DNA of 32,000 nt from Lachnospiraceae bacterium (GCA_017615545.1 JAFZZY010000039.1:1-32000), one strand, 5' to 3'. Counted from the stretch's first letter, positions 10,944 to 29,562 are shown. Notes: generated by a model not told the origin, from the letters alone. Made by a program: numbers and translations.

Positions 10944-11060
10944 TTAATCAAGGTTTTCGAAGGAACGCTCGCAACCAGGATCGCGGCGGGAGATCGGAAA
11001 CAAAAATATTAAAACGGGCGATGCCCGTAATACCCTACACATTAACAGGAGGACACTACG

Positions 11061-11213
11061 ATGAAGAAATTAGTTTTACTCGCTGCACTTGCTGCAGGCG
11101 CTGCATATGCCGTAACCAATAAGGATAAGATTGCTAAGCTTAAGGAAAAGGCTTGCAACTGTAATGGTGATTGCGATTGCGACGATGCAGATGACGATGC
11201 TGACGAGGAGTAA
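11061..11213 (+). CDS. small (50 aa) signal-peptide/TM-anchored Cys-rich acidic protein, below the ORF-track length cutoff
   Basis: Strong AGGAGG RBS 8 nt upstream of the ATG. Translation is MKKLVLLAALAAGAAYAVTNKDKIAKLKEKACNCNGDCDCDDADDDADEE. It has its own upstream promoter-like region and a downstream terminator. Confidence 0.5.
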   Translation: MKKLVLLAALAAGAAYAVTNKDKIAKLKEKACNCNGDCDCDDADDDADEE

Positions 11214-11362
11214 CACAAAACAGTTGTTGCTCGATTCATAATAACCCCCATTTTTTAAAGGCTTCTGCTTCGGCGGAAACCTGTGCCCGAATGCTTCAAC
11301 ACCGAAGCAGTCGGACATCCTTGATCTGCGAAAGCAGATCGCCACTTTCTAACCTTTCATAC

Positions 11363-11400
11363 AAAAACCGCGATGAAACCTACGTTCGTCGCGGTTTTTG
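11363..11400 (+). terminator. rho-independent terminator
   Basis: ACCGCGATGAA-ACCTACG-TTCGTCGCGGT (11 bp including one G-U), followed by TTTTT. Confidence 0.8.
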
Positions 11401-11402
11401 TA

Positions 11403-11433
11403 TTGAAATCAAAATAATAATATGTTATTATTT
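11403..11433 (+). promoter_or_regulatory. sigma-A promoter of the ABC operon overlapped by a 9-bp inverted repeat
   Basis: TTGAAA (11403-11408), 17 nt, TATTAT (11426-11431). AAATAATAA-TATG-TTATTATTT (11412-11433) is a perfect palindrome covering the -10. Confidence 0.5.
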
Positions 11434-11522
11434 ATTTACAAGATGAAAGATCAACGCAACGTGGATCGGATGATGCGTAAACGGAATATGACCCGGGGTA
11501 GCCGGGAAAACGGAGGCGTGGC

Positions 11523-12251
11523 ATGATATTAACGGCAGAGAATTTGACGAAAGAATACGGGAAGAAGAGGGCATTGGATACATTTTCCTATACCTTCCAT
11601 GAGGGGATCTATGGCCTGTTGGGACCGAACGGCGCGGGAAAATCAACGCTGATGGGTATCCTGACGACCGGACTGAAGGCGACATCCGGAAAGGTCCTCT
11701 GGGATGGAACGGACATCGCCTCGATGGGTAAGAATTACCGCGGCCTGGTCGGTTTCATGCCGCAACAGCAGAGGATCTATGAGGACTTTACGCTGACGCG
11801 GTTCTTGTACTACGTTGCTTCTTTGAAGGGCAAGAAGAAGCAGGATGTGAAGGACGAGATCGACGACATCATCCACAGCGTGAACCTGTGGGAAGTCCGC
11901 AATGACTGCATCGGCACGTTTTCGGGTGGTATGAAGCAGCGGACACTGCTGGCCCAGGGACTGGTCGGTGATCCGTCGATCCTGATCATGGACGAACCGA
12001 CGGTCGGGCTGGACCCGAAGGAGCGTGTGCACTTCCGGGAACTGGTCAGCCGCGTAGCCGGCGAGAAGATCGTCATCATCGCGACACATATCGTAAGTGA
12101 CCTTGAAAAATTGGCCTCAGAGATCATCTTTTTGAACCACGGAAAGATCGTAGAGAGCGGTACATTGGATACGCTGTATGAAAAGTACGGCGGACAGAAA
12201 GAGACTTCGGTAGAGGAAATCTACATGAGCCTCGGAATGGAGAGTAAATAA
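11523..12251 (+). CDS. ABC transporter ATP-binding protein (ABC-2/DrrA-like)
   Basis: Walker A GPNGAGKST, signature FSGGMKQR, Walker B ILIMDEPT, H-loop IATH. Confidence 0.9.
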   Translation: MILTAENLTKEYGKKRALDTFSYTFHEGIYGLLGPNGAGKSTLMGILTTGLKATSGKVLWDGTDIASMGKNYRGLVGFMPQQQRIYEDFTLTRFLYYVASLKGKKKQDVKDEIDDIIHSVNLWEVRNDCIGTFSGGMKQRTLLAQGLVGDPSILIMDEPTVGLDPKERVHFRELVSRVAGEKIVIIATHIVSDLEKLASEIIFLNHGKIVESGTLDTLYEKYGGQKETSVEEIYMSLGMESK

Positions 12252-14374
12252 TGTTCCTGCACGAGTGGTATAAATTATGGCATAACAGGAAGCTTCTGGG
12301 CTTTTTGGTCGCCCTTCTTTTGGTGAACGCCCTCTATTTCTGGTACCACGCCGAACGTGATGTCGCGCCTGCGCACGCCTACCGGGCGTTGACGGCGGAT
12401 CTGCGCGGCTATAGCGATGCGGAGGCGGCGGAGCAGCTCGCCCAGATGAAACAGGAAGCGTCGGCGATCTATTATATGGAGCCGGGCAATGTCGTCTGGA
12501 CGGACCCGAAGTATACCGACTCTCTGTTCACGGAGAGGGAGCTGCTCGCGATCAAGGAGGCAGAGTACACCGATGTGCTCGACTATCCCAAGTTCGTGAA
12601 GAAGGCGGCCGGTACAGCGGCTGAGTACAAAATGTTGCTGACGATCCTCGGCGGATCCGGCGATAAGATGAAGGATGTGGAAAAAACGAGTAAGGAGTAC
12701 GAGCAGCTGCTCGGCCTTACGATCCGCCAGACACATACGAAGGGAATTGCGGAAGCATTGTCCCTGCCGAGTTTGATATTTTTGGAACTGTTGCTTGCGG
12801 TTCTGCTGACTTCGCTGATGTTCACGAAGGAAAAAGAGCAGGGCCTGCTTCGGTTGTATTCTTCCATGAAGTCCGGGCGCGGACGGATGTTCCTGACCCG
12901 CGTGGGAGCGGTCTCCGTGGGATGCGCGGTCTGCAATTTTCTTTTCTTGTTGACGACGCTCCTGACGGGCTGCCTGCTCTACGGAAGGCCGATCGGCTCG
13001 TTCCTGACGGAGCCGGTGCAGTCTCTGATCGGGTATAAGCAGACGGTCATGCAGATCAACATCGGGACATTTCTCCTGTTGGTATTTGTGTGGTCCTGCA
13101 TCGTATCGACGGCAGTCGTGTTGCTTACGTCGGTAGTCAGTTCGCTGGTCTCTTCGGCGTTGAAGGTCTACGTGATCCTCTTTTCGCTGATCGGTATCGA
13201 GGGTATCCTCTACATGAAAATCGACGACCTGAGTTATCTGGCTGGCTTTAAGCGGATCAATCTCGTGTCATTTGCCGATCCCGGATACACGATCGCGCGC
13301 TACCACAACGAGATCGTGTTCGGAAATCCGATCAGTTATCCGATCGTCGCGTTGGCGCTTCTGGCGTTGCTGATCCTGGTCTGCGCAGCGGTCGGCTGGA
13401 TCCTGTCAAATAAAGGCTTCGGCGTGATCCCGAGACGGGGCAGAGGCCTCCGTTTCCTGCGGATCTTCAAGCGGTCGGAGGAGCATGGCTTCGGAAGTCA
13501 TACGAGACTTTCCCTACATGAGAGCGTGAAGTTTTTCCGTTTCGAGAAGATCGGTTATATTCTTTTGATCCTAGCGGTGTTCCTGTTGGCGACGACAAAA
13601 CCGTATAAGAAGTACGACTCCTCGATCGAGGAAATGTTCTATCAATCCTACCTGTATCGTGTGGAACAGGTCGGACCGGAGCAGTACGGCGATATCCTCG
13701 TGCAGTTTGAGGAGGAGATGGAGCGGGAGCAGAGGATGTCATCCGATTCGTCTTCGCTTCAGTATAAGCAGACAGCGCTGAACCGCATTACGGAGTATCT
13801 CACATATCTGCAGTCGAAGGAGGGCTCGCAGGCTCTCGACGTCCGCGGGTATGAGAAATTGTATAAGGACCGGAAGCAGAACGTCATCCTCGGCGTCTGC
13901 GCGGTGCTGGCGGCGATCTTGTGCGGCGCGGCGAGCATGGCGGTCGAATATCGCACAGGTATGATCGGGCAGATCTGCATTTCCCCAAAACGCGGAAAAG
14001 TATTCCTGTGTAAAGCCCTCATCCTGCTTGGTACGGTCACCCTGTTTTACGGGATGATCTACGGCAGATACCTCTATCAGGTGCTGAAGGGCTACGGAAC
14101 GTACGGCATCGGCTTTTCGGCGAACAGCCTGCCGGACTGGAAGAACCTGCCTGCGTCGTTTTCGATGGCCGGAGGGATCGCCCTCGTTTGGCTGAAGCGC
14201 TATGTCGGCATGCTTCTGGTCACCGGCGTGACGGTTTTCGCGACAAGCAGGATCAAAAGCTTCCTGATGACAGCGATCGTGTGCCTTGTGATCATCGCTG
14301 TACCGCTGTTGCTCTGCCTGTGGGAGTCGGGCGTTCTGTCATACATAATGTTCAACTATTTCTTCGTGATATAG
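12251..14374 (+). CDS. large polytopic membrane protein, presumed permease partner of the ABC ATPase
   Basis: 707 aa. TAATG overlap with the ATPase gene. Two clusters of hydrophobic helices (about aa 170-390 and 540-707), each preceded by a hydrophilic segment that begins with one helix. Confidence 0.8.
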   Translation: MFLHEWYKLWHNRKLLGFLVALLLVNALYFWYHAERDVAPAHAYRALTADLRGYSDAEAAEQLAQMKQEASAIYYMEPGNVVWTDPKYTDSLFTERELLAIKEAEYTDVLDYPKFVKKAAGTAAEYKMLLTILGGSGDKMKDVEKTSKEYEQLLGLTIRQTHTKGIAEALSLPSLIFLELLLAVLLTSLMFTKEKEQGLLRLYSSMKSGRGRMFLTRVGAVSVGCAVCNFLFLLTTLLTGCLLYGRPIGSFLTEPVQSLIGYKQTVMQINIGTFLLLVFVWSCIVSTAVVLLTSVVSSLVSSALKVYVILFSLIGIEGILYMKIDDLSYLAGFKRINLVSFADPGYTIARYHNEIVFGNPISYPIVALALLALLILVCAAVGWILSNKGFGVIPRRGRGLRFLRIFKRSEEHGFGSHTRLSLHESVKFFRFEKIGYILLILAVFLLATTKPYKKYDSSIEEMFYQSYLYRVEQVGPEQYGDILVQFEEEMEREQRMSSDSSSLQYKQTALNRITEYLTYLQSKEGSQALDVRGYEKLYKDRKQNVILGVCAVLAAILCGAASMAVEYRTGMIGQICISPKRGKVFLCKALILLGTVTLFYGMIYGRYLYQVLKGYGTYGIGFSANSLPDWKNLPASFSMAGGIALVWLKRYVGMLLVTGVTVFATSRIKSFLMTAIVCLVIIAVPLLLCLWESGVLSYIMFNYFFVI

Positions 14375-14427
14375 AGGACAGAATATGATATAATACTTCT
14401 ATACTCGTAAACGGAGGAAAGGATGCT

Positions 14428-14928
14428 ATGGGATTTTTTGACAAATTAAAAGATGCAATGAAACAGGCTTCGGAAAATGCGAACCGCAAAACCGCAGGTG
14501 TGCAGCCGCAGGATCCACAGCCGGCAGCGGCGCAGCGGAAGAGCAGACTGCCTGAAGGAGTGATCATGGCGATGCTCGATGAGAGAAATATGCAGCCGAT
14601 CGTCTACGGGACCGATGAGAACGGCAAAGACCTGGTGATGAGGGTCAGCGGCGCCATTCATTTCAAGCAGGATAATCCGGATGACACGGATCATGCGGTC
14701 CTTCGTAAGAAGGTAGCAGGCATTGCCCGCGAGCATATCGTAGCCGGCTTGAAGACGATCGATCCGGAGGATCTGAAATCACTGCTTCTCCTGGCGAACC
14801 GCTTAAACGGAGAGATCCTCGAGGATCTGAAGGCGAATGGTTATACCGCCAGCTACAAACTTCCGCTCATACTTACGCCTGCGCGCAGACCGAACCCCGC
14901 GCCGGAAGAGACTTCGGAAGAAAATTAA
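14428..14928 (+). CDS. hypothetical protein (166 aa)
   Basis: GGAGGAAAGG RBS. The N-terminus MGFFDKLKDAMK is followed by a Pro/Gln-rich linker and a globular C-terminal part. No motif assigned. Confidence 0.65.
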   Translation: MGFFDKLKDAMKQASENANRKTAGVQPQDPQPAAAQRKSRLPEGVIMAMLDERNMQPIVYGTDENGKDLVMRVSGAIHFKQDNPDDTDHAVLRKKVAGIAREHIVAGLKTIDPEDLKSLLLLANRLNGEILEDLKANGYTASYKLPLILTPARRPNPAPEETSEEN

Positions 14929-14947
14929 AAAAATTTAAAAAAAACTG

Positions 14948-14976
14948 TTGACAAAGTTGAGAACCTGTATTAAAAT
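14948..14976 (+). promoter_or_regulatory. sigma-A promoter upstream of asnB leader
   Basis: TTGACA (14948-14953), 17 nt, TAAAAT (14971-14976). Preceded by A-tracts (AAAAAATTTAAAAAAAA) that look like an UP element. Confidence 0.6.
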
Positions 14977-15001
14977 GTGCTCAATTTGAATGATGTATGG
15001 C

Positions 15002-15041
15002 AAAGGCGCCACGGAGGATATCCGTGGCGCTTTTTGTTTTT
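15002..15041 (+). terminator. intrinsic terminator inside the asnB 5' leader (candidate attenuator)
   Basis: AAAGGCGCCACGG-AGGATAT-CCGTGGCGCTTT: 9 G/C-rich bp plus an A-U/G-U extension, followed by TTTTTGTTTTT. Lies between the promoter and the asnB ATG at 15083. Confidence 0.7.
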
Positions 15042-15082
15042 CCATTCAAAGATAGAACACATGAAGAAAGAGGCAAAAAACG

Positions 15083-16666
15083 ATGTGCGTTGTAATGGGA
15101 ATGAAAAAGAGAAATATCTCCCGCGCCGCATTTGAGAACCACATGAAGGTCACAACTTCCCGCGGGCCGGATGGAATGCGGGTCGTGCAGGCGGGCGATG
15201 GTTTCCTCGGTTTTCAGAGATTGTCCATCATGGGACTGACCGAGGCCGGTATGCAGCCGTTTGAACGAAACGGCAATATCGTCGTTTGTAACGGCGAGCT
15301 GTACGGCTTCCGAAACCAGAAGGCAAAACTGATGGAAGCCGGCTACACATTCCAGAGCGACAGCGACTGCGAGATCATCCTTCCGATGTACGAGTTGTAC
15401 GGACGGAAAATGTTTTCCATGCTGGATGCGGAATACGCCATGATCCTGTACGACGCTAAGGAGGGAGAACTGATCGCGGCCCGCGACCCGATCGGCATCC
15501 GGCCTTTGTTCTACGGATATGACGAGAGCGGCGACATCTGTTTTGCCAGTGAAGCGAAGAACCTGGTCGGCCTGACCGATAAGATCACGCCGTTCCCGCC
15601 GGGCCACTACTATTACAAAGGCGAGTTCATCTGCTACAACGATCTGGCAGCGCGTCAGCCCTATGTGGACGATGACCTCGAGACCGTTTGTAAGAACATT
15701 CGCGAGAAACTGATCGCAGGCGTGGAAAAACGTCTGGATGCAGATGCAAAGATCGGTTTCCTGCTTTCGGGAGGTTTGGACAGTTCCCTGGTATGCGCGA
15801 TCGCGACGAAGATCTTAGGACATCCGATCGAGACATTTGCCATAGGAATGAACGAAGACGCGATCGACCTGAAGTACGCGAAAGAGGTGGCCGACTTCAT
15901 CGGCAGCAACCATCACGAGATCATCATCAATAAGGACATCGTGCTGGGAGCGCTCCGCGAGGTCATCGCGGCCCTGGGTACCTTCGATATCACGACGATC
16001 CGGGCGAGCATGGGAATGTACCTGATCTGCAAAGGCATTCGCGAGACCACGGATATCCGGGTGCTCCTGACCGGCGAGATCTCCGATGAGATCTTCGGTT
16101 ACAAGTACACGGACTTCGCTCCGAACGCTGAAGAGTTCCAGTTGGAAGCAGAGAAGAGACTTCGCGAGTTGTACATGTACGACGTGCTTCGCGCCGACCG
16201 TTGCATTTCGGTCCACTCGATGGAGGCCCGCGTTCCGTTCGGCGATCTGGATTTCGTATCCTACGTAATGCGGATCCCGCCGGAGAAAAAGATGAATGTC
16301 TACAACAAAGGAAAATACCTGTTGCGCCATGCGTTCGAGGGCCTGGGTTACCTGCCGCAGAACATTCTGATGCGCGAGAAAGCAGCATTTTCCGATGCAG
16401 TCGGACATTCGATGGTAGACTACTTAAAGGCTTACGCCGAGGAAGTCTACAGCGATGAAGTTTTCAAAGAGAAATGCGCGGCTTACGATCACGTGCCGCC
16501 GTTCACCAAAGAGTCGCTTTTGTATCGCGAGATCTTTGAAGAGTTTTATCCCGGACAGGCAGAGATGATAAAGGATTTCTGGATGCCGAACAAAAACTGG
16601 GAGAACTGTGATGTCAACGATCCGTCGGCCCGTGTTCTTAAGAACTACGGCCAGAGCGGTTGTTAA
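15083..16666 (+). CDS. asnB: asparagine synthase (glutamine-hydrolysing)
   Basis: N-terminal Met-Cys (class II Ntn amidotransferase nucleophile). ..RGPDG.., ..QRLSIMG..GMQPF.. and the PP-loop LLSGGLDSS align by eye with E. coli AsnB. Confidence 0.9.
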
Positions 16667-16686
16667 TAAAAAAGGAGGATATCAAA

Positions 16687-18789
16687 ATGGATGTTACCAA
16701 GATTTTCGGAAGTATGGTATTTAATGACGATGTGATGAAAGAACGTCTTCCCAAGGATGTGTATCGTGTTCTTCACAAGACCATCGATGACGGCGTGCAT
16801 TTGCAGCTGGACATCGCAAACGTAGTTGCGGAGGCCATGAAGAATTGGGCCATCGAAAAGGGTGCAACGCACTTCACACATTGGTTCCAGCCGATGACCG
16901 GCATCACCGCAGAGAAGCATGACGGTTTTATCGCTCCGGAAGGAAACGGACGTGTTTTGATGGAGTTCTCCGGTAAGGAACTCGTAAAGGGCGAGCCCGA
17001 TGCATCCTCCTTCCCGTCCGGCGGCCTGCGTGCGACATTTGAGGCACGTGGTTATACAGCCTGGGATCCTACCAGTTATGCATTTATCAAGGACGACACC
17101 CTGTGCATCCCGACCGCGTTTTGTTCTTACAGCGGCGAGGCGCTGGATAAGAAGACACCGCTCCTGCGTTCCATGCAGGCGCTGGATAAGCAGGCAGTAC
17201 GTATCCTGCGTTTGTTCGGAGATACCGCTTCTAAGCGTGTTATGACTACGGTCGGCCCGGAGCAGGAGTACTTCCTGATCGACTGCGACGTTTATAAGCG
17301 TCGTCCCGACCTGATCTATACAGGACGTACATTGTTCGGCGCGAAGCCGCCGAAGGGCCAGGAAATGGAAGATCACTACTTCGGTATGATCAAGCCCAGA
17401 GTAAAGGCTTATATGAAAGACCTGGATGAGGAGCTGTGGAAGCTCGGCATCCTGTCGAAGACGGAGCATAACGAAGTAGCTCCGGCCCAGCATGAATTGG
17501 CCCCGATCTTCTCGACGACCAACATCGCAACGGATCACAACCAGTTGACGATGGAGCTGATGAAGATCGTTGCAGGCAAGCACCACATGGTATGCCTGCT
17601 GCATGAGAAGCCGTTCGCAGGCGTGAACGGTTCCGGTAAGCACAACAACTGGTCCATGTCGACCGACACAGGTAAGAACCTGTTGGAGCCGGGCGAAACA
17701 CCGTCCCAGAATGCGCAGTTCCTGCTCTTCCTGATGGCAGTCATCAAGGCAGTCGATGAATATCAGGGTCTGCTCCGTATGTCGGTTGCTTCCGCGGCAA
17801 ATGACCACCGTCTCGGCGCAAACGAGGCACCGCCCGCGATCATGAGCGTATTCATCGGTGATGAACTCGATGCAGTCCTGAAGGCGATCGAAGATGGCAC
17901 GGACTATCATGATCCCGAGAAGAAGCTGATGAGCATCGGCGCTACGGTCCTTCCTCATATCCCTTGCGATACGACCGACCGTAACCGTACTTCACCGGTT
18001 GCATTTACCGGTAATAAATTTGAATTCCGTTCGCTCGGTTCTTCCGCATCGATCTCCGGTCTGAACATCGTTCTGAACACGATCGTTGCACAGACACTCA
18101 GCGAATATGCAGAGATCCTGGAGAAGGCAGACGACTTCGACGCGACCCTCAACAAACTCATCCGTGACGAGATCAAGGCGCATAAGCGCATCATCTTCAA
18201 CGGCAACGGTTATTCCGAGGAGTGGGTGAAGGAAGCTGAAAAGCGCGGCTTGCTGAACCTGAAGACGACCGTCGATGCACTCGGATCGTTCATCGAGCCG
18301 AAGAACATGAAGATCTTCGAGGACCAGGGCGTTTACTCCGAGTCCGAGATCAAGGCTCGTTACGAGATCCTGCATGAGAACTACTACAAGACCATCAACA
18401 TCGAGGCGCTTACGCTGATCTCCATGGTGAAGAACAACATCACCGGAGCCGTAGCAAACTACGAGGGACGTCTTGCAGATGTGATCATCAAGAAGAGCCA
18501 GGCTCTTTCGAAGGATGCCTGCACATGTGAGGAGACTCTCCTGAAGCACATTTCCCGTCTGGCATGCAGCCTGCAGTGCAAGCTGGGTAAGCTGGAAGAG
18601 GATGTTGCGAAGGAGAAGGAACTGACCGATGTTGTCGCTTTGGCGAAGTATCATCAGGAAGTCATCCTGGCCGACATGGCAGCGCTGCGTGAGGTAGTCG
18701 ACGAGATCGAGCCGCTGATCCCGAGCGATCTGTGGCCGTACCCGACCTACGCTGAGATCCTGTACAGTGTACGGTATCAGCCGGTATAA
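16687..18789 (+). CDS. glnN: glutamine synthetase, type III (about 700 aa)
   Basis: Start placed at the ATG at 16687, behind AAGGAGG. The length and the N-terminal block ..[29 protein letters not shown].. are characteristic of GSIII as I recall it from Bacteroides/Butyrivibrio/Ruminococcus. Confidence 0.85.
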
Positions 18790-18858
18790 ATTAGGCGTTT
18801 TTCTAACCAATCTCTCAAAATACATGGTACCGCCAGGCGGTGCCGAAGCAATTTCATT

Positions 18859-18907
18859 AACGAAGGTGCAACGGGGCACGAAAGGAACCGTTGCACCTTC
18901 GTTTTTT
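18859..18907 (+). terminator. strong rho-independent terminator after the GSIII gene
   Basis: 16-bp stem AACGAAGGTGCAACGG / CCGTTGCACCTTCGTT with a 13-nt loop, followed by a TTTTTT run. Confidence 0.85.
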
Positions 18908-18998
18908 GATCTTGCGAGTCTGGCCAAAGCCGGACTTTAAATCAAAAAAACAAAGGTTGCGGTGCTTACTTTGGGAGGAACGCAACGAGGAGGTTATT

Positions 18999-20771
18999 AT
19001 GGATACTGGTAGCATTATGAGTTTGATCGACGAAAAAGTGTTCGGCGTCTGGTTCCTGATCGGCGCGGCACTCGTGTTCTGGATGCAGGCTGGTTTCGCC
19101 ATGGTCGAGACCGGTTTCGCCCGTGCGAAGAACGCAGGTAACATCTTGATGAAGAACCTGATGGACTTCTGTATCGGTACCGTGACGTTCATCCTGATCG
19201 GTTTCGGTCTGTTCCTGGGCGAAGACGCGCTCGCAGGTTTCTTAGGTCTTCCGAGCTTTGATATCTTCACGGATTACGCTCACTTCGACTGGAGCAACTT
19301 CGTATTCAACCTGGTATTCTGTGCGACGACCGCAACGATCGTTTCCGGTGCTATGGCAGAGCGTACCCGTTTCCTTTCTTACTGTGTTTACTCGGCGATC
19401 ATTTCCGCAGTGATTTACCCGATCGAAGCTCACTGGACATGGGGCGGCGGCTGGCTCGCTAAGCTCGGTTTCCACGATTTCGCAGGTTCCAACTGCATTC
19501 ACATGGTCGGCGGTATCTGCGCCCTGATCGGTGCGATCATGGTCGGTCCCCGTATCGGTAAGTTCGTAAAAGATAAAGCCGGAAAGGTTACTAAGGTCAA
19601 TGCTTTCCCCGGCCACAACATCACTCTCGGCGCCCTGGGTGTATTCATCCTGTGGCTCGGCTGGTATGGTTTCAACGGCGCTGCTGCAACCAGTGTTGAG
19701 CAGTTGGGCGCTATCTTCGTAACGACCACGATCGCTCCTGCGGTCGCAACCGTAGTATGTATGATCTTCACCTGGATCCATTACGGCAAGCCCGATGTAT
19801 CCATGTGTCTCAACGCTTCTCTCGCAGGTCTGGTAGCGATCACCGCTCCTTGTGACGTAGTTGACGCAGCCGGCGCTTCCATCATCGGCGCGATCTCCGG
19901 CCTCGTAGTTATCTTTGGTATCTGGCTTCTCGATCACAAGCTTCACGTTGACGACCCTGTCGGCGCTGTAGGCGTTCACATGTGCAACGGTATCTTCGGT
20001 ACCCTCGCTGTAGGTCTGTTCGCAACCGACACAGCACCCACCTATGCATTGGCCGACTCTTCAGGCAACCCGATGCTCGGACTGTTCTACGGCGGCGGTT
20101 TCAAACTCCTCGGCATCCAGACTCTGGGTATGCTGGCCACGGCAGCCTGGACAGCGATCACCATCACGATCACATTTGCCATCATTAAAAAGATCTTCGG
20201 TCTTCGTGTTACCGAAGAAGAGGAACTTACAGGTCTCGATATCACTGAGCACGGTCTTGCATCCGCATACTCAGGTTTCTCCATCATGGATGTTACCGGC
20301 ATGGAGATGTCGGTCAATGAGAACACGGACCTCGGTGTCAGCGAGTACGGCGAGGCATCGCAGGCTATGGTCGATGCAGCCGTTAAGGTAAATGCAGCGC
20401 CTGTGATGAGCACTGCAACGATGCACAAAGTCGTTATCATCGCAAAGCTGGCTCGTTACGAGCAACTTAAGAAGGCCCTCAACGATCTCGGTGTTACCGG
20501 TATGACGGTCACACAGGTCATGGGCTGCGGTATCCAGAAGGGTGCCGGCGAGAAGTACCGTGGTATTGAAATGGATGCCACCCTGCTTCCGAAGGTTAAG
20601 GTCGAAGTCGTAGTCAGCAAGATCCCGGTGGCGGATGTCATCGAGGCTTCGAAGAAGGCACTGTACACCGGTCACATCGGTGATGGTAAGATCTTCGTAT
20701 ACGGCGTAGAGCAGGTCGTTAAGGTACGTACCGGCGAGGAAGACTTCGCAGCATTGCAGGATGTAGAATAA
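18999..20771 (+). CDS. amt: ammonium transporter (Amt) fused in frame to a C-terminal P-II (GlnB/GlnK) domain
   Basis: Start placed at the ATG at 18999, behind GAGGAGG; the track's 18891 start lies inside the terminator. Amt motifs are FWMQAGFAMVETGF and HDFAGSNCIHMVGG. The last 116 aa (nt 20421-20768), MHKVVIIAKL..GVTGMTVTQVMGCGIQKGAGEKYRG..LLPKVKVEVVV..TGHIGDGKIFV..V.KVRTGE, align without gaps to canonical P-II. Confidence 0.9.
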   Translation: MDTGSIMSLIDEKVFGVWFLIGAALVFWMQAGFAMVETGFARAKNAGNILMKNLMDFCIGTVTFILIGFGLFLGEDALAGFLGLPSFDIFTDYAHFDWSNFVFNLVFCATTATIVSGAMAERTRFLSYCVYSAIISAVIYPIEAHWTWGGGWLAKLGFHDFAGSNCIHMVGGICALIGAIMVGPRIGKFVKDKAGKVTKVNAFPGHNITLGALGVFILWLGWYGFNGAAATSVEQLGAIFVTTTIAPAVATVVCMIFTWIHYGKPDVSMCLNASLAGLVAITAPCDVVDAAGASIIGAISGLVVIFGIWLLDHKLHVDDPVGAVGVHMCNGIFGTLAVGLFATDTAPTYALADSSGNPMLGLFYGGGFKLLGIQTLGMLATAAWTAITITITFAIIKKIFGLRVTEEEELTGLDITEHGLASAYSGFSIMDVTGMEMSVNENTDLGVSEYGEASQAMVDAAVKVNAAPVMSTATMHKVVIIAKLARYEQLKKALNDLGVTGMTVTQVMGCGIQKGAGEKYRGIEMDATLLPKVKVEVVVSKIPVADVIEASKKALYTGHIGDGKIFVYGVEQVVKVRTGEEDFAALQDVE

Positions 20772-20852
20772 GCAGGGCTTATACATCCTATTACAGGAGT
20801 AAAAGTCATTTTGCAGGCGGCCCAGAAAGCCGAAAAAAATTGAAAAAAGGCA

Positions 20853-20881
20853 TTGACACGTCTATGCCGCTGTGCTAAAAT
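20853..20881 (+). promoter_or_regulatory. sigma-A promoter upstream of gltB leader
   Basis: TTGACA (20853-20858), 17 nt, TAAAAT (20876-20881). A-tracts lie upstream (GAAAAAAATTGAAAAAAGG). The hexamers and spacing are the same as in the asnB promoter. Confidence 0.6.
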
Positions 20882-20897
20882 GCTTTCTTAGAAAAGC

Positions 20898-20939
20898 AAA
20901 GGCGCTTTGATGGGTGTAACAGCCCTTCAAAGCGCCTTT
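20898..20939 (+). promoter_or_regulatory. long leader hairpin upstream of gltB (weak terminator or regulatory stem-loop)
   Basis: AAAGGCGCTTTGA(T)GGGT-GTAACA-GCCC(T)TCAAAGCGCCTTT: 13 + 4 bp with one U-U mismatch and a hexaloop. The downstream U-tract is interrupted (TTTCGTGATT). Confidence 0.5.
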
Positions 20940-20989
20940 CGTGATTCCGGGAAAGCATTTTCCGTAGTATCGACAAAGGAGCAGTTAAG

Positions 20990-23900
20990 ATGGAAAAGTA
21001 CGAATATCATCCGATCGAACATGATGCCTGCGGTATCGGCGCCGTGGCAAATATCGACGGCGAGGCAAGCTATGAGACGATGTCGGACGCATTGTCCATC
21101 GTGGAAAAACTCGAGCACCGCGCAGGCAAGGACGCCAGCGGAAGCGTCGGAGACGGCGTGGGCATCCTGTTGCAGGTGAGCCATGATTTCTTTTCAAAAG
21201 CAGCGGCAGAGCAGGGGATCTCTGTAGGCGGTGCCGGAGACTACGGCATCGGTATGATCTTTTTGCCGGCCGATGAGATGAAGCGCACTTTCTCGATGCG
21301 GATGTTGCAGATGATCGCGGCGAAGGAAGGCCTTAAGTTCCTGGGCTGGCGTAAGGTTCCGACGCATCCGGAGATCCTGGGCCAGGTGGCTCTGGACTCG
21401 ATGCCTGCGATCTATCAGTGCTTCCTGGGACGCCCGGAGCATGTGGCGCGCGGCCTGGATTTCGACCGCCGTCTGTACGTAGTTCGCCGCGAATATGAGC
21501 AGAGTGCCGATGATGCTTATGTTTGCTCGCTTTCGTCCCGTACGATCGTTTATAAGGGTATGTTTTTGGTCAAGCAGCTGCGTGCATTCTACGATGATCT
21601 GCGCAGCACCGATTACAAGACCGCGATCGCGATCGTGCATTCTCGTTTCTCGACGAATACGAACCCTTCGTGGGACCGTGCGCATCCGTACCGCATGATC
21701 GCGCACAACGGCGAGATCAACACGATCCGCGGTAACATTGACCGTATGCTCGCCCGTGAGGAAACCATGAAGAGCCGGATCTTTGCCGAGGATCTGGATA
21801 AGGTTTACCCTGTTGTCAGCCTGTCGGGCTCGGACTCTGCGATGTTCGACAACACGATCGAGTTCTTATATATGAATGGGATGCCGCTGCCGCTGGCCAT
21901 GATGATCACGGTGCCGGAGCCCTGGAAGCATAATGAGTACATGGAGCGTACAAAGAAGGATTTCTACCATTACTACGCTACCATGATGGAGCCGTGGGAC
22001 GGACCGGCAGCCATGCTGTTTTCGGATGGCGAGCTGCTTGGCGCGACGCTGGACCGCAACGGTCTGCGCCCTTCCCGCTACTATATCACGGATGACCACC
22101 GCCTGATCCTCGCATCCGAGGTCGGCGTGCTGGACATTGACCCTGCACATATCGTGAAAAAGTCCCGTCTGGAGCCCGGCCGCATGCTGCTCGTAGATAC
22201 GAAGAGCAAGCGCATCATCTCCGACGAGGAGTGTAAATCGATCTATGCAAATAAGGAGCCTTACGGCGAATGGCTGGACCAGAACCTGCAGCATCTTGCA
22301 GATCTGAAGATCCCAAATAAGAAGATCCCGACGCACACGCAGGAGATGCGGGACCGCCTGTATAAGGCATTCGGCTACACCTATGAGGACGTGAAGGACC
22401 TCATCCTGCCCATGGCGAAGAACGGTATCGAGCCGACGGTTTCCATGGGACACGACGTTCCGCTGGCGGTACTGAGCCGCAGACATCAGTCGCTGTTCAA
22501 CTATTTCAAGCAGCTGTTCGCGCAGGTCACCAACCCGCCGATCGACTCGTTGCGTGAGAAGATCGTCACCGACACGACCGTATACATCGGTTCCGACGGC
22601 GACCTGCTGACCGAGAAGAGCGAGAACTGCCGCATGCTCGAGATCAATCACCCGATCCTGACCGGCGTTGACGTCATGAAGATCAAGAGCCTGGATACGG
22701 AGAGCCTGAAGAGCACGACAGTATCCCTGCTTTTCTATAAGAATACTTCGCTTAAGAAAGCGGTGGAGCAGCTCAATATCCGCGTGGATAAAGAGGTTGC
22801 TTCCGGAAAGAATATCATCATCCTGTCCGACCGCGGCGTGGATGAGAACCATATGGCGATCCCGTCGCTGCTGGCGGTTTCGAGCGTGGAGCAGCACCTG
22901 GTGCTCACGAAGAAGCGAACCGCCGTTTCGATCATCCTCGAATCTGCAGAGCCGCGTGACGTGCATCAGATGGCAGTCCTGTTGGGCTTCGGCGCACGAG
23001 CCATCCATCCGTACCTCGCGCATGAGTGCATTGCCGAGATGATCGACCTGGGCATCCTGGATAAGGATTACCACACGGCGATCGAGGATTACAACTCGGC
23101 GATCCTGAACGGTATCGTAAAGATCGCAGCGAAGATGGGTATCTCCACGATCCAGTCCTACCAGTCGGCGCGTATCTTCGAGGCGATCGGCCTGTCGAAG
23201 GAAGTGATGGATCACTATTTCACCGGTACGGTGAGCCGTGTAGGAGGCATCGGCATCCGCGAGATCGAAGAGGGCGTTTTGTTCCGCCACAATCATGCAT
23301 TCGATCCGCTGGAGCTGGGTACAGACACCCGACTGGATTCGACTGGTTTCCACTCGTTGCGCAGCGGTGAGGGTGCGGAGGATCATTTGTACGATCCGAC
23401 CACGATCGTCAATCTGCAGCGCGCGGTACGCACCGGCGATTATGCGAAGTTTAAGGAATATACGGCGCTGGTCGATGCGGAGGATCGTCCGCACACCTTG
23501 CGCGGCCTGCTGGATATGGTATCGGATCGCGCACCGATCGATATCAGCGAAGTAGAGCCGGCGGAAAGTATAGTCCGCAGGTTTAAGACGGGAGCCATGA
23601 GCTATGGTTCGCTGTCCCAGGAGGCACATGAGACCCTGGCGATCGCCATGAACCGTCTCGGCGGTAAGTCGAATACCGGTGAGGGCGGCGAAGCGAGCGA
23701 ACGCTATGGCACAGAGAAGAACAGCGCGATCAAGCAGGTCGCTTCGGGACGTTTCGGCGTAACGAGCGCATATCTGCGGAGCGCAAAAGAAATACAGATC
23801 AAGATGGCGCAGGGCGCGAAGCCCGGCGAGGGCGGACACCTTCCGGGTAAGAAGGTCTACCCGTGGGTTGCGGCAACACGTTTCTCCACACCGGGTATCT

Positions 23901-25510
23901 CGCTGATCTCCCCGCCGCCGCACCATGATATCTACTCGATCGAGGATCTGGCACAGCTGATCTACGATCTGAAGAATGCCAACCGCGACGCGAGAATCAA
24001 CGTTAAACTGGTCTCCGAAGCGGGCGTCGGCACGATCGCATCCGGTGTTGCAAAAGCCGGTGCCCAGGTCATCCTGATCTCGGGCTATGACGGCGGTACC
24101 GGAGCAGCTCCGCCCAGCAGCGTGCATCACGCAGGTCTGCCTTGGGAGCTGGGTCTGGCCGAGGCACATCGCAGCCTGATCGAGAGCGGCCTCCGTTCCC
24201 GCGTCACCATCGAGACCGACGGTAAGCTGATGAGCGGCCGTGACGTTGCGATCGCAGCCCTGTTGGGCGCCGAGGAGTTCGGTTTCGCAACGGCTCCGCT
24301 GGTATGTATGGGTTGTATGATGATGCGTGTCTGCTCGAAGGACACCTGCCCGGTCGGCATCGCGACGCAGAATAAAGAGCTGCGTAAGCGTTTCGCAGGT
24401 AAGCCGGAGCACGTAATGAACTTCATGCTGTTCATCGCTGAGGAACTGCGTGAGATCATGGCACAGCTCGGTTTCAAGACCGTGGAAGAGATGGTCGGCA
24501 GAAGCGACATCCTGCATGTGCGTAAACACCCGATCACGAAGCGTGCGGGCATGGTAGACCTGGCGGCAGTGATCGATCCGACCTATGCAGAGTTCGAGAA
24601 GCGTCATTTCGATCCGAAAGACATTTATGATTTCAAACTTTCCGAGACACCGGATATGAAGCAGTTGCTGCCGTATTTCGCGGATGTTTTAAGCGGAAAG
24701 AAGAGTGAGAAGAAGCCTGTAACAGTGCAGGTTTCCAGTACAGACCGTAGTTTCGGTACCATCCTCGGTTCCGAGATCACACTGAAGCTGGGTAGCGACG
24801 TGAAGGACGACACCTTCCGCGTGGAGGCAGTCGGCGGCGGCGGACAGTCGTTCGGCGCATTCCTTCCGAAGGGCCTGACGATCCGCCTGACGGGCGATGC
24901 AAACGACGGCGTCGGCAAGGGATTGTCCGGCGGTAAGCTCATTATCGTCCCGCCGAAGAACGCGGGCTATGCGGCCGATGAAAACATCATCATCGGTAAC
25001 GTTGCGCTATACGGCGCGACCTCCGGTACGCTCTATGCGAGCGGTATCGCGGGCGAGCGTTTCTGCGTACGTAACTCGGGCGCGACGGCGGTAGCCGAAG
25101 GTTGCGGCGACCACGGTCTGGAGTACATGACCGGAGGCGTGGCAGTCCTGCTCGGACCGACCGGTAAGAACCTGGCAGCCGGCATGAGCGGCGGTATCGC
25201 GTTTGTTCTGGACGAGCATCACGACCTGTATCGCCGGATCAATAAAGAAATGGTAACTTTCGGTGAGATCACCGAAAAAGAAGATAAGGAACGCCTGCTG
25301 GAGATCCTGAAGGATTACGCGGCGGCGACCGGCTCGAAGAAAGCAGCCGGCATCCTGGAGAAGTATGATGAGATGCTTCCATATTTCAAGAAGATCGTGC
25401 CGATCGGTTACAGCCGCATGCTGAAGACCATCGCGAAGTACGAGGCGAAGGGCATCAGCCGCGACGCTGCAGTCCTGGAAGCATTTGAAGAGATTTCAAA
25501 GGAGGGTTGA
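20990..25510 (+). CDS. gltB: glutamate synthase large subunit
   Basis: 1506 aa. Has an N-terminal propeptide followed by the Ntn Cys (HDACGIGAV). FMN/Fe-S domain motifs are NTGEGGE, KMAQGAKPGEGGHLPG, ISPPPHHDIYSIEDL and CxxxxxC..CPVGIATQ. C-terminal GXGXG beta-helix repeats are present. Confidence 0.95.
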   Translation: MEKYEYHPIEHDACGIGAVANIDGEASYETMSDALSIVEKLEHRAGKDASGSVGDGVGILLQVSHDFFSKAAAEQGISVGGAGDYGIGMIFLPADEMKRTFSMRMLQMIAAKEGLKFLGWRKVPTHPEILGQVALDSMPAIYQCFLGRPEHVARGLDFDRRLYVVRREYEQSADDAYVCSLSSRTIVYKGMFLVKQLRAFYDDLRSTDYKTAIAIVHSRFSTNTNPSWDRAHPYRMIAHNGEINTIRGNIDRMLAREETMKSRIFAEDLDKVYPVVSLSGSDSAMFDNTIEFLYMNGMPLPLAMMITVPEPWKHNEYMERTKKDFYHYYATMMEPWDGPAAMLFSDGELLGATLDRNGLRPSRYYITDDHRLILASEVGVLDIDPAHIVKKSRLEPGRMLLVDTKSKRIISDEECKSIYANKEPYGEWLDQNLQHLADLKIPNKKIPTHTQEMRDRLYKAFGYTYEDVKDLILPMAKNGIEPTVSMGHDVPLAVLSRRHQSLFNYFKQLFAQVTNPPIDSLREKIVTDTTVYIGSDGDLLTEKSENCRMLEINHPILTGVDVMKIKSLDTESLKSTTVSLLFYKNTSLKKAVEQLNIRVDKEVASGKNIIILSDRGVDENHMAIPSLLAVSSVEQHLVLTKKRTAVSIILESAEPRDVHQMAVLLGFGARAIHPYLAHECIAEMIDLGILDKDYHTAIEDYNSAILNGIVKIAAKMGISTIQSYQSARIFEAIGLSKEVMDHYFTGTVSRVGGIGIREIEEGVLFRHNHAFDPLELGTDTRLDSTGFHSLRSGEGAEDHLYDPTTIVNLQRAVRTGDYAKFKEYTALVDAEDRPHTLRGLLDMVSDRAPIDISEVEPAESIVRRFKTGAMSYGSLSQEAHETLAIAMNRLGGKSNTGEGGEASERYGTEKNSAIKQVASGRFGVTSAYLRSAKEIQIKMAQGAKPGEGGHLPGKKVYPWVAATRFSTPGISLISPPPHHDIYSIEDLAQLIYDLKNANRDARINVKLVSEAGVGTIASGVAKAGAQVILISGYDGGTGAAPPSSVHHAGLPWELGLAEAHRSLIESGLRSRVTIETDGKLMSGRDVAIAALLGAEEFGFATAPLVCMGCMMMRVCSKDTCPVGIATQNKELRKRFAGKPEHVMNFMLFIAEELREIMAQLGFKTVEEMVGRSDILHVRKHPITKRAGMVDLAAVIDPTYAEFEKRHFDPKDIYDFKLSETPDMKQLLPYFADVLSGKKSEKKPVTVQVSSTDRSFGTILGSEITLKLGSDVKDDTFRVEAVGGGGQSFGAFLPKGLTIRLTGDANDGVGKGLSGGKLIIVPPKNAGYAADENIIIGNVALYGATSGTLYASGIAGERFCVRNSGATAVAEGCGDHGLEYMTGGVAVLLGPTGKNLAAGMSGGIAFVLDEHHDLYRRINKEMVTFGEITEKEDKERLLEILKDYAAATGSKKAAGILEKYDEMLPYFKKIVPIGYSRMLKTIAKYEAKGISRDAAVLEAFEEISKEG

Positions 25511-25512
25511 TC

Positions 25513-27009
25513 ATGGGAAAGCCTACCGGATTTTTGGAATATGAACGACAAGAAAATACGGATGTGCCGGTATCTGCCCGGATCACGAACTTCCGTGAAT
25601 TTCACGAGCCGCTGACGCCGGAGAAACGGCGGACGCAGGGCGCGCGCTGCATGAACTGCGGCGTTCCCTTCTGCCAGTCAGCCATGAAATTGAATGGCAT
25701 GGTGACGGGCTGCCCGTTGCACAACCTGATCCCCGAGTGGAACGAGGAAGTCTATCTGGGCAATGATGCGCACGCATTCAACCGTCTGGCGAAGACCTCC
25801 AACTTCCCGGAGTTCACCGGGAGAGTGTGCCCGGCGCTGTGCGAGAAGGCCTGCATCAATGGCATGTGCGGTTCCCCTGTCACCATTCACGACAACGAGC
25901 TGTTCATCATCGAGACGGCGTTCAAAGAGGGCTTCATCAAGCCGATGCCTCCGAAGGTACGCAGCGGCAAGAAGGTCGCTGTCATCGGAAGCGGCCCTTC
26001 GGGTCTGGCGACGGCAGATACGCTGAACCACCGCGGCCACAGCGTGACCGTGTACGAGCGCAGCGACCGTATCGGTGGTCTGCTGATGTACGGCATCCCG
26101 AATATGAAACTTGATAAATCCGTGATCCTGCGCCGTCAGGCGCTGATGGAGGCCGAAGGTGTGACCTTCAAGACCGGCGTGAACGTCGGCGTGGATGTCA
26201 CCGCGGAGGAGCTCATGAAGGAGTACGACGCGATCGTTTTGTGCTGCGGCGCAAAGCAGGCGCGGTCCCTCGCAGGCATTGACCCGAAGACCATGGGCGG
26301 CGTGTATTATGCGGTGGATTTCCTGACTTCGACCACGAAGGCGATCCTGGATAACGATATCGCCAGCCGCGAGATGAGCGAGCTGGAGGCAGCCGGCGGA
26401 TACATTTCCGCGAAGGGTAAGAACGTCGTCGTTGTCGGTGGCGGTGACACGGGCAATGACTGCATCGGTACGGTGATCCGTCACGGCTGTAAGTCGGTGA
26501 CGGCGCTGGAGATGATGGCGCAGCCTCCGAAGGAACGCGCGGCAAACAATCCCTGGCCCGAATGGCCGAAGGTCGAGAAGACCGATTACGGCCACCAGGA
26601 AGCCATTGACCGCTTCGGCAAGGATCCGCGCCGCTACGAGACGACGGTGAAGGAAGCAATCTGCGACGAAAAGGGAAACCTGAAGGAACTCGTGATCGCG
26701 AAGGTGCGCTTTGTGGACCGGAAGCTTGAGATCGTGGAAGGCAGCGAGGAGACGATCCCCTGCGAACTTCTGCTGATCGCGGCGGGCTTCGTAGGCTGCG
26801 AGCGCTACGTGCCCGAAGCATTTTCCGTAAGCGTGGGTCCGAGGGGCAATGTTGCGACGGCCGAATCGGCGTACACGACCGACGTTCCGAAGGTATTCAC
26901 TGCAGGCGACATACACCGCGGCCAGTCCCTGGTCGTTTGGGGCGTAGCCGAAGGTCGTGCATGCGCACAGGAAGTCGATAAATTTTTGATGGGATACAGC
27001 AATCTGTGA
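25513..27009 (+). CDS. gltD: glutamate synthase small subunit (NAD(P)H-dependent)
   Basis: ATG at 25513, 6 nt after GGAGGG; the track's TTG at 25507 is the alternative start. Fe-S cysteines are [11 protein letters not shown] and [11 protein letters not shown]. Dinucleotide folds are [12 protein letters not shown] and [13 protein letters not shown]. Confidence 0.9.
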
Positions 27010-27031
27010 TATAATATCAAAGGTGGGGCGT

Positions 27032-28480
27032 ATGAAAGGTAATGTGAACGAAGAATGCGGCGTATTCGGCATCTATGAGCCGGAAGAAGGGCAGATCGCA
27101 CAGATCGTGTACCACGGTCTGGTGGCCCTGCAGCACCGCGGCGAGGAAGCAGCGGGCATCGCGGTCAATAAGGGCCGCGTGATCACCTGTGATAAGGATC
27201 TCGGTCTGGTGAGCGAGGTCTTCGACCAGGAGCGGCTTTCGCGTCTGGGCACCGGCAACATGGCGATCGGCCACGTGCGTTACTCGACGAGCGGTTGCAG
27301 CACGAAGGAGAACGCGCAGCCCATGCTGGTGAAACATATCAAAGGCCAGCTGGCGCTCACGCACAACGGCAACCTGGTCAATTCTTCCCAGTTGCGACGC
27401 GAACTGGAAGAGCAGGGCTGCATCTTTCATACGACCAGCGACACCGAGGTGATCTCCTACATCATCACGAGGCAGCGCCTGGTGACCCCGTCCATCGAGG
27501 CGGCGGTCGAGAAGGCGATGGACATTTTGGACGGAGCGTATTCGCTGGTCCTGATGTCGCCGGCGAAACTGATCGCAGTCCGCGATCCGCATGGTTTTAA
27601 GCCTCTGTGCATGGGCAGGATCCCCGCGACCGGCGCCATTCTGTTCGCGTCGGAGACGGCGGCCCTGGCGGCGGTCGGCGCGGAGTTCGAACGCGACATC
27701 CGGCCCGGCGAGATCGTGGTGGTGGAAGCGGGACAGGTCCGCAGCATCACCAGCCACTGCGACACCGAAAAACGCAGTTTATGCATCTTTGAACACATCT
27801 ATTTTGCGCGGCCCGACTCGAAGATCGACGGCGTATTTGCCAATGATTTTCGCATAGAAGCCGGCAAAAGCCTGGCGAGAAACGGGGCGGTCGACGCGGA
27901 CATCGTGATCGGCGTTCCCGATTCGGGCCTATCCGCAGCACTCGGTTTTGCGGAAGAATCCGGTCTCCGCTATGAGATCGGACTGATCAAAAACAAATAC
28001 ATTGGCCGGAGCTTTATCGCTCCGTCACAGGAAGAACGGGCAGACATGGTGCACATGAAGCTCTCGTGCGTGGTGCCGGCGGTGCGCGGAAAGCGCGTGG
28101 TGCTGATCGACGACTCGATCGTGCGCGGTACCACGAGCGCACAGATCGTGCGGCTTCTGAAGGATGCAGGAGCAAAGGAAGTGCACATGCGGATCTCGTC
28201 ACCGCCGTTCATGAACCCCTGCTACTACGGAACCGACATCGACTCGCGTGAACATCTGATCGCGTGCCGGATGACGATCCCGGAGATCTGCAAGTTCATC
28301 GGCGCGGACAGTCTCGCGTTTCTTCAGGTCGACGCGGCCCGGGACATCCTGGCGCGGCTGATGCAGGTTTCCGGAGATCAGGTCGGCGTTTGCACCGCCT
28401 GCTTCGACGGAGACTATCCGACCCGGGTGCCGGAGCATTATGAGAAAAACCGGTTTGAAACAATGGAGGTATCGACGTGA
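27032..28480 (+). CDS. purF: amidophosphoribosyltransferase
   Basis: ATG at 27032 behind AGGTGGGG. The short propeptide plus catalytic Cys ([14 protein letters not shown]) is like B. subtilis PurF. PRPP loop is [10 protein letters not shown]-terminal Fe-S cysteines are [10 protein letters not shown]. Confidence 0.95.
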
Positions 28481-29562
28481 AGGCATATCTGATCTTAGAG
28501 GACGGGACTACATTTTGCGGAACTTGCGTGGGCGCGCCTGCGGAAGTCATCGCGGAGATCGTCTTCAACACATCGATGACCGGATACCTGGAGATATTGA
28601 CAGACCCGTCGTATTGCGGGCAGGCTGTCGTGTTTACGTATCCGTTGATCGGAAATTACGGCATATGTTTCGATGACATGGAGTCAAAGAACATCTGGCC
28701 CAAGGCGATGATCGCCCGCGGCATCTCGGACATCCCGAGCAATTTCCGTTCGGAAAATACGTTACCGAACCTGCTGAAGCGGTATCACATCCCGGCGATC
28801 AGCGGCATCGATACACGTGCGCTGACGAAGCATTTGCGTACGGCCGGGACCATGAACGGCATGATCACCACGAAGGAATACCTGCCGGACGATCTTCCGA
28901 AGATCCTGGCGAAGATCCGCGGCTACAAGGTGACCGACGGCGTTCGTTTGACGACGGCAAAAGAAGCGGAAGAATTCGCGCCGACCGGCCCTTCGATCGG
29001 AAAACGGGTGGCGCTGTATGATATGGGTGAGAAGGAAAATATCCTGCGGAGTCTGCGGGCGCGCGGGATCACAGTGAAGAATTTTCCGGCGACGGCGAGT
29101 GCGAAAGAGATCCTCGCGTACAAGCCGGACGGCATCATGATCTCCAACGGGCCGGGCGACCCGAAGGATAATTTCCATGTAATAAAGGAATTAAAAGAGA
29201 TCTATGCGAGCGACATTCCGGTGTTCGCCATCTGCCTGGGCCACCAGTTGATGGCGCTGGCGACGGGCGCGGATACTTATAAGCTGCCCTATGGACACCG
29301 CGGCGCGAACCATCCGGTGAAGGATCTGGAGACCGGACGTGTGTACATCACGTCGCAGAACCATGGCTATGCGGTCGACATGAAGACCGTGGATCCGAAG
29401 ATCGCCGTGGCGGCCTACGAGAATGTCAACGATAAGACGAATGAAGGCCTGCGCTATGTGGGCAGAAATATATTGACCGTACAGTTCCACCCGGAGGCAA
29501 GTCCGGGACCGAAGGATACGGAGGGACTGTTTGATCGTTTTGTGGAGATGATGGAGGCGTAA
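28477..29562 (+). CDS. carA: carbamoyl-phosphate synthase small (glutaminase) subunit
   Basis: GTG start overlapping the purF stop (GTGA). The class I triad context is ICLGHQL, and HGYAV and QFHPEA are also present. Confidence 0.95.

Follow-up and report, generated by a model that had tools for sequence, protein, structure and literature searches.

The ANTAR antiterminators EutV, NasR and AmiR bind RNA hairpins with a hexanucleotide loop, the terminator-proximal hairpin overlapping the 5′ arm of the terminator (Ramesh et al., 2012; PMC3369931), and mutagenesis has shown that A1 and G4 of this loop, together with the closing pairs, are required (PMC3369931). The canonical target comprises two tandem hexaloop hairpins, the upstream one (P1) set apart by a linker of ~5–12 nt, and antitermination by EutV needs both of them as well as a constrained linker (PMC3369931; PMC8934654). 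In crystal structures of EutV with RNA both ANTAR domains of the dimer touch one hexaloop (Walshe et al., 2022; PMC8934654), and the minimal motif has been redefined as a single hexaloop, with single sites expected where no transcribing polymerase sets a time limit (PMC8934654). ANTAR target RNAs have been listed in Clostridia upstream of asparagine synthase, ammonium transporter, glutamine synthetase (GS) and glutamate synthase (GOGAT) genes (PMC3369931), and in solventogenic clostridia an ANTAR antiterminator, NitR, has been described by which GS/GOGAT genes are induced on nitrogen limitation (PMC6316151; PMC4676874). Here we describe the leaders of the asnB-glnN, amt-PII and gltBD operons in a 32 000-nucleotide stretch of DNA from a Lachnospiraceae bacterium (GCA_017615545.1, JAFZZY010000039.1:1–32000; hereafter the window, from whose first nucleotide all positions are counted). 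Each leader is very probably an ANTAR-type, protein-dependent transcription attenuator, NitR-like and nitrogen-responsive.

Three leaders with a hexaloop hairpin overlapping a terminator or terminator-like hairpin

The original prediction for this region, made from the DNA alone, had drawn attention to an identical 10-mer, GCAAAGGCGC, in the gltB and asnB leaders. It occurs exactly twice in the window, at 20896–20905 and 15000–15009, both on the + strand, where 0.11 exact matches are expected, and a count of two was reached in 1 of 100 shuffles; the count with one mismatch allowed was not significant. Read as RNA, GCAAAGGCGC is GC/AAAGGC/GC, the top of a mini-hairpin with a C-G closing pair and with A1 and G4 in its loop. 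This ANTAR-type hexaloop mini-hairpin, the predicted antiterminator, is UGGC-AAAGGC-GCCA in the asnB leader (14998–15011, + strand; −4.4 kcal/mol alone) and AAAGC-AAAGGC-GCUUU in the gltB leader (20893–20908, + strand; −2.9 kcal/mol alone). A third attenuator (18859–18907, + strand) had been overlooked; it lies 5′ of the amt gene, in the spacer that separates glnN from amt, rather than between amt and gltB. It consists of a terminator, AACGAAGGUGCAACGG ... CCGUUGCACCUUCGUU followed by UUUU (−30.5 kcal/mol), with the mini-hairpin GUGC-AACGGG-GCAC (18866–18879, + strand) inside its 5′ arm. The hexaloops themselves are AAAGGC at 15002–15007 and 20898–20903 and AACGGG at 18870–18875; A1, G4 and the C-G closing pair are present in all three, and every copy is on the sense strand of the gene that it precedes.

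The mini-hairpins of asnB and gltB also overlap large hairpins. In the asnB leader this is an intrinsic terminator found by the terminator scan (15002–15041, + strand; −24.5 kcal/mol), with a 14-bp stem at 15002–15034 followed by UUUUUGUUUUU, whilst the gltB leader has a terminator-like hairpin with a weak tail, UUU/CGUGAUUCC (20898–20948, + strand; −28.2 kcal/mol). The latter has a stem of 13 + 4 bp; its position (20898–20939), its GUAACA loop and its broken U-tract were as originally described, with CGUGAUUCC following. Both the asnB and the amt hairpins pass the test for intrinsic terminators, a G+C-rich stem and then a U-tract. The mini-hairpin and the large hairpin overlap at 14998–15011 and 15002–15034 in asnB, at 18866–18879 and 18859–18903 in amt, and at 20893–20908 and 20898–20939 in gltB. 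In amt the 5′ stem and loop of the mini-hairpin sit within the 5′ arm of the terminator; in asnB and gltB the large hairpin takes its 5′ arm from the loop and 3′ stem of the mini-hairpin. In all three leaders the two folds are mutually exclusive. Since the mini-hairpins reach −2.9 to −4.4 kcal/mol and the terminators −24 to −30 kcal/mol, a protein would be needed to favour the former. The leader folds are far more stable than those of shuffled sequences, with z = −7.9 for gltB and −5.05 for asnB.

The 10-mer had been taken for the beginning of the large hairpin's 5′ arm, and the competing mini-hairpin, and with it the antiterminator/terminator switch, had been missed. The accompanying caveat, that AAAGG resembles a Shine-Dalgarno sequence and so inflates the number of such matches, does not apply, the AAAGG here being loop sequence 70–90 nt from the start codons.

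In the published seed alignment the P2 hairpin of Enterococcus faecalis eutA, UUAAGC-AAAGGC-GCUUAA (PMC3369931, Fig. S1), contains the same GCAAAGGCGC as the asnB and gltB leaders, and the P2 hairpin of Listeria monocytogenes eutV, GAGC-AACGGG-GCUC (PMC3369931), has the loop of the amt leader. The loop of Klebsiella oxytoca nasF P2, the target of NasR, is AAAGGC (PMC3369931) and stands next to a terminator as here, with A1 and G4 required for antitermination. The original prediction was thus right that the asnB and gltB leaders share a cis-regulatory element of nitrogen assimilation, a conserved hairpin that acts in RNA, but the element is not an unnamed one: the 10-mer is an ANTAR hexaloop hairpin, identical to the core of eutA P2.

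The leaders share with the dual-hexaloop targets of EutV, NasR and AmiR a short stem closed by C-G, an A1/G4 hexaloop and the overlap with the terminator 5′ arm; moreover, the genome encodes an ANTAR protein and the regulated genes belong to nitrogen metabolism. Unlike those targets, they have no upstream hairpin (P1), and their single hairpin comes right at the 5′ end of the transcript; some related leaders carry two complete attenuators in series rather than two hairpins before one terminator; and this clade adds a helix that joins the 5′ end to sequence past the terminator. Judged by their sequences, the leaders would work like ANTAR attenuators; we therefore class them as a variant with one hairpin, outside the dual-hairpin family in its defined form. 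The single-hairpin form may already be noted in the primary NitR paper (Stutz et al., 2007).

A NitR-like ANTAR gene beside glnA in the same cluster

No ANTAR gene was found inside the window. One is encoded on scaffold L081, which matches the window with one mismatch in 13 524 nt and continues past its end with carB, glnA (GSI), a gene for a 183-aa ANTAR protein (PF03861) and pyrG, the stretch from glnA to pyrG occupying L081 14353–17841 (window-equivalent ~32829–36317). The ANTAR gene, between glnA and pyrG, lies at L081 15682–16233, equivalent to window positions 34158–34709 and ~2.2 kb past the window end. Its product is 28% identical over the full length (E = 6e-19) to a NitR-like protein of locus L042, whose gene stands between glnA and gltB, and its ANTAR domain matches those of Rv1626 and EutV in the PDB. 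In an alignment to FixJ, itself weak (E ~0.03), the phospho-acceptor Asp54 is replaced by Gly, which suggests that the N-terminal domain is a pseudo-receiver controlled by a partner and not by phosphorylation. NasR differs in sensing nitrate via a NIT domain, the protein here having a receiver-like N-terminal domain that apparently lacks the phospho-acceptor Asp. Thirteen related loci also have NitR-like ANTAR genes at no more than 10 kb from gltB.

This arrangement resembles the NitR system of Clostridium saccharobutylicum and C. acetobutylicum (glnA-nitR, gltAB), in which the ANTAR gene likewise comes right after glnA and the GS and GOGAT targets are induced on nitrogen limitation; GS/GOGAT genes are among the predicted targets here too. 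In Clostridium an antisense-RNA layer has been described as well. The same hexaloop and terminator precede glnA-nitR in L042 (a metagenome-assembled genome labelled C. butyricum) and in L044 (C. paridis). Unlike in the NitR system, the predicted regulon here comprises asnB-glnN, with a type III GS (GSIII), amt-PII and gltBD; the host is an uncultured member of the Lachnospiraceae, and no hexaloop hairpin was seen in its own glnA leader.

The same switch might instead be read by another factor, be it a different RNA-binding protein (one linked to PII or GS, for example) or a small molecule, or might operate by kinetic attenuation. The missing P1, a departure from the ANTAR dual-hairpin rule, would fit such a reader, as would the fact that most motif-bearing loci have no ANTAR gene within 10 kb. 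Yet loop and closing pair correspond exactly to the ANTAR determinants established by experiment, the EutV-RNA crystal contacts are confined to a single hexaloop (PMC8934654), an ANTAR gene is present in the same cluster, a hairpin of 14–16 nt is too small for a ligand pocket and no Rfam riboswitch was matched. We consider a reader other than the ANTAR protein unlikely.

Conservation of the element in related loci

For comparison we assembled 167 loci, 80 around GltB relatives in species genomes, 80 metagenomic and seven around close Amt relatives. Genome and metagenome scans gave no relative with more than 75% GltB identity, and closer ones came from a protein search and contig look-ups. To count as a site, a hairpin had to have three or more stem base pairs, a closing C-G and the loop AA.G.. 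and to overlap a compact terminator; each match was scored against the first downstream open reading frame (ORF) on its own strand. An initial scan that admitted any A..G.. loop and long segments proved too permissive, returning 372 matches in which the A/G class was no commoner than other loop classes, and only when a closing C-G, A2 in the loop and compactness of the terminator were demanded did the scan become informative.

The first set of 81 sequences yielded 35 sites, of which 30 were directly 5′ of gltB, gltD, amt(-PII), glnN or asnB and two 5′ of glnA. The metagenomic and close-relative loci added ~50 more, including pyrG, glnA (GSI) and purF leaders, giving overall ~80 distinct hairpin-plus-terminator copies 5′ of gltB, gltD, amt, glnN, glnA, asnB, pyrG and purF in records labelled Lachnospiraceae, Ruminococcus, Clostridium and Treponema/Spirochaetaceae. 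The element is restricted to nitrogen and glutamine genes. Among terminator-overlapping hexaloop hairpins, CAA.G..G made up 31 of 112 near nitrogen genes and four of 467 elsewhere (Fisher p = 5e-20), a contrast that is conservative in its numerator and loose in its denominator since labelling each site by the next ORF downstream picked up sites within gltB as well; two of the four cases elsewhere were glnA leaders.

In an anchored alignment 89.7% of stem cells were paired, compared with 64% in shuffles, and no slid register came close. Stem positions take AU, GC, CG, GU and UA at the same sites. A1, A2, G4 and the closing C-G are invariant in the aligned instances, all four having been selection criteria (A1 and G4, selected for as they were, occur in all 31 and 42 aligned instances); the closing C-G, though selected for, is also enriched near nitrogen genes. 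The outer two stem pairs, the only ones free of selection bias, are paired in 68% and 81%. Stems that change in sequence yet keep their pairing around a fixed loop are the signature of an RNA element. A covariance model trained on 42 hairpins, all from other organisms and none from the window, was used to rank every position on both window strands; the gltB hairpin came first (21.6 bits, E = 0.0013) and the asnB hairpin second (17.8 bits). The third-ranked match, GGC-AAGGAC-GCC (21123–21138, 15.7 bits), lies ~135 nt inside the gltB ORF with no overlapping terminator and is probably due to chance.

Close relatives retain the amt mini-hairpin as GUGC-AANGGN-GCAC (L167, L168 and L169), and an 18-mer identical to the gltB mini-hairpin region is found in the glnN leader of L001. 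Hairpin and terminator were also seen 5′ of pyrG, purF and glnA (GSI) in other gut and rumen Clostridia (L129 at 241, L131 at 5230, L132 at 3664/5202, L133 at 5095, L105 at 5266, L120 at 6269 and L087 at 8409), and with the pyrG, purF and glnA leaders carrying the attenuator the regulon extends to glutamine-dependent nucleotide synthesis.

Three loci labelled Treponema/Spirochaetaceae (L004, L005 and L088) have gltB, gltD and the same attenuators, with loop AAAGAC, their GltB being 66–68% identical to that of the window; this suggests that the gltB-gltD operon was transferred together with its leader. In Ruminococcus gltB leaders (L038, L039 and L043) a second hexaloop hairpin, GGTTC-AATGGC-GAACC in L043, is located 3′ of the terminator, 60–90 nt 5′ of gltB and near the ribosome-binding site. 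It may add control by ANTAR proteins at the level of translation.

Promoters and bracket arms

The asnB-glnN and gltBD operons are each preceded on the + strand by a promoter with the hexamers and spacing TTGACA-17-TAAAAT and an A-tract 5′ of it (14948–14976 and 20853–20881, respectively, the latter with a TG extension), as the original prediction had noted. Each matches at 11 of 12 positions, and the pair are the two top sigma-70-like sites in 11000–29000. Judged by spacing, transcription would start at ~14983–14984 for asnB and ~20888–20890 for gltB. Two identical promoters of what appears to be a strong housekeeping type, presumably constitutively active, fit control after initiation and give no pointer to a shared operator.

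Both hairpins are enclosed by complementary arms, again as predicted. Those of gltB, AAAATGCTTTC (20877–20887, + strand) and GAAAGCATTTT (20951–20961, + strand), form a perfect 11-nt inverted repeat; those of asnB are an 8-mer pair, TTTGAATG (14985–14992, + strand), which would occupy about +2 to +9 of the transcript, and CATTCAAA (15043–15050, + strand), just past the U-tract. Compared with shuffles the duplexes have z = −3.5 (gltB) and −4.3 (asnB), an equally long perfect run being found in 0 and 1 of 200 shuffles, respectively. The gltB 5′ arm overlaps the −10 box and for this reason is probably present only in RNA that reads through from amt; the terminator scan detected no terminator between amt and gltB. 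In the absence of the 5′ arm the gltB 3′ arm folds on itself (CGGGAAAGCAUUUUCCG).

The arms had been taken as an equal part of the shared element. As a component of the conserved element we reject them, because they are missing from roughly 75 more distant leaders, where flank complementarity has z ~0. Even L167, with an Amt of 97% identity, has 2-nt indels in both 3′ arms, the one in gltB being a deletion. L168 and L169, whose Amt proteins are 87% and 86% identical, respectively, have other arm pairs at this place in their asnB leaders, TTTAAACG/CGTTTAAA and TAGTAAA/TTTACTA, a change that looks like a compensatory one, each match being only modestly unlikely alone. By this distribution the bracket arms are a clade-specific accessory helix outside the core element. 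Such a helix would tie the 5′ end of the mRNA to sequence made only after read-through in asnB, and our guess is that it might close, stabilize or mark the read-through mRNA.

An overlap with the −10 box, and a 5′ arm consequently likely to be absent from the RNA of that promoter, is also what one would expect if the repeats acted in DNA, the 10-mer or the inverted repeat serving as an operator for a nitrogen regulator such as GlnR or TnrA or the palindrome forming a cruciform, and the perfection of the gltB 11-mer would suit this as well. However, the window contains no TGTNAN7TNACA (TnrA/GlnR) site anywhere, the arms are 63 nt apart, which is not operator geometry, and they are not conserved past the immediate clade. 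The hairpin, for its part, always overlaps a terminator, its stems covary across species with pairing kept and loop fixed, and its three copies in the window are all on the sense strand, the comparative matches having been scored on their own strand. Action at the DNA level is accordingly very unlikely. That these hairpins simply serve the upstream genes as ordinary terminators, with a 10-mer shared by coincidence through its Shine-Dalgarno-like, G+C-rich stem composition, has negligible probability: the asnB hairpin is indeed a textbook terminator and the one-mismatch count of the 10-mer is not above chance, but in asnB and gltB a promoter stands between the upstream gene and the hairpin, two exact 10-mers were found against 0.11 expected, the same loop on covarying stems recurs 5′ of nitrogen genes in ~80 leaders, an externally trained model ranks the asnB and gltB sites best in the window, and the differing stems and terminators show that related leaders are not recent copies of a single sequence.

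Proposed mechanism and points that weigh against it

In the ANTAR attenuator that we propose, a strong constitutive promoter would initiate the transcript, the first few nucleotides of which would form the weak mini-hairpin with its C-G closing pair and hexaloop AANGNN (AAAGGC in asnB and gltB). Unaided, the more stable downstream terminator would win and transcription would halt in the leader. When nitrogen is limiting, the NitR-like ANTAR protein, encoded beside glnA ~13 kb downstream in the same cluster, would clamp the hexaloop hairpin, the base of the terminator would be blocked and RNA polymerase would read into the operon. Binding of the hairpin by this ANTAR protein, with termination suppressed under nitrogen limitation, is what we infer, and the direction of the nitrogen response is proposed in the same way. 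The signal would reach the pseudo-receiver via a partner, for which GS, whose gene is always beside the ANTAR gene, and PII are candidates.

Several observations weigh against this interpretation. An A..G.. hexaloop hairpin 2–22 nt upstream, as expected of P1, was present in only three of 80 distinct leaders, compared with a random background of 6.5%, and neither inspection nor the scan revealed one in the three window leaders. Where a promoter could be recognized (56 leaders), the median distance from the end of the −10 box to the stem was 12 nt, so that the hairpin starts within the first few transcribed nucleotides. Rfam gave no match in the whole window at the gathering threshold and nothing above chance level with E up to 10 in 14900–21000. 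The amt hairpin scored only 10.2 bits with the covariance model, and the count of covarying pairs is limited by the selection of instances for at least 3 inner bp. Finally, the terminator scan flagged the asnB hairpin (15002–15034) and not that of gltB, where termination may be weak or follow a different mechanism. The gltB hairpin of L167 has at the tail position GCGCUUUUCGUGUUUUCC, given also as UUUUCGUGUUUU, a tail which suggests that the hairpin is a terminator in this lineage; the gltB terminator may be leaky in the present strain.

A possible single-hexaloop class of ANTAR attenuator

Each leader in the window has one attenuator unit. Tandem complete attenuators were found in gltB of L036 (9833 and 9899), in asnB of L168 (968 and 1042) and L169 (603 and 671), and in the amt leaders of L033, L038 and L043, which include Ruminococcus. 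Tentatively, and with rather more doubt than conviction, we propose a distinct single-hexaloop class of ANTAR attenuator, in which one 5′-terminal hairpin without P1 would suffice for NitR-type proteins with a pseudo-receiver-like domain. Its regulon would comprise asnB, glnN, glnA, amt-PII, gltBD, purF and pyrG in Lachnospiraceae, Ruminococcus, Clostridium and some Treponema, this clade adding a helix that marks or stabilizes read-through transcripts.

Genomic setting

Pfam scans gave the + strand gene order asnB, glnN, amt-PII fusion, gltB, gltD, purF, carA, and the protein search labels the host an uncultured Lachnospiraceae bacterium. asnB (15083–16666) overlaps glnN (16660–18789), which encodes GSIII; the amt-PII fusion probably starts at 18999 and ends at 20771 (590 aa by the gene call on the matching scaffold), and gltB (20990–25510) and gltD (25507–27009) follow. 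Including its continuation on L081, the cluster is made up of enzymes that make or use glutamine (asnB, glnN, amt-PII, gltBD, purF, carAB, glnA and pyrG). Just 5′ of the asnB promoter are two ORFs with no Pfam match at E up to 0.001, one of 166 aa (14428–14928) and one of 707 aa (12251–14374), the latter coming after an ABC ATPase gene.

Implications

Control of the asnB-glnN, amt-PII and gltBD operons is probably exerted after initiation, by a NitR-like ANTAR antiterminator, and calls for no promoter operator and no new RNA class. If the proposed single-hexaloop class is real, it contradicts the view derived from EutV that two hairpins are needed whenever a transcribing polymerase sets the time limit, and if one hairpin does suffice the leaders collected here would be a natural test of the successive-binding model for EutV. 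A model requiring dual hairpins would probably miss most of the ~80 leaders; to search gut and rumen Clostridia for this regulon, C-AANGNN-G at the 5′ end of a transcript, overlapping a terminator, would be a cleaner and simpler pattern.

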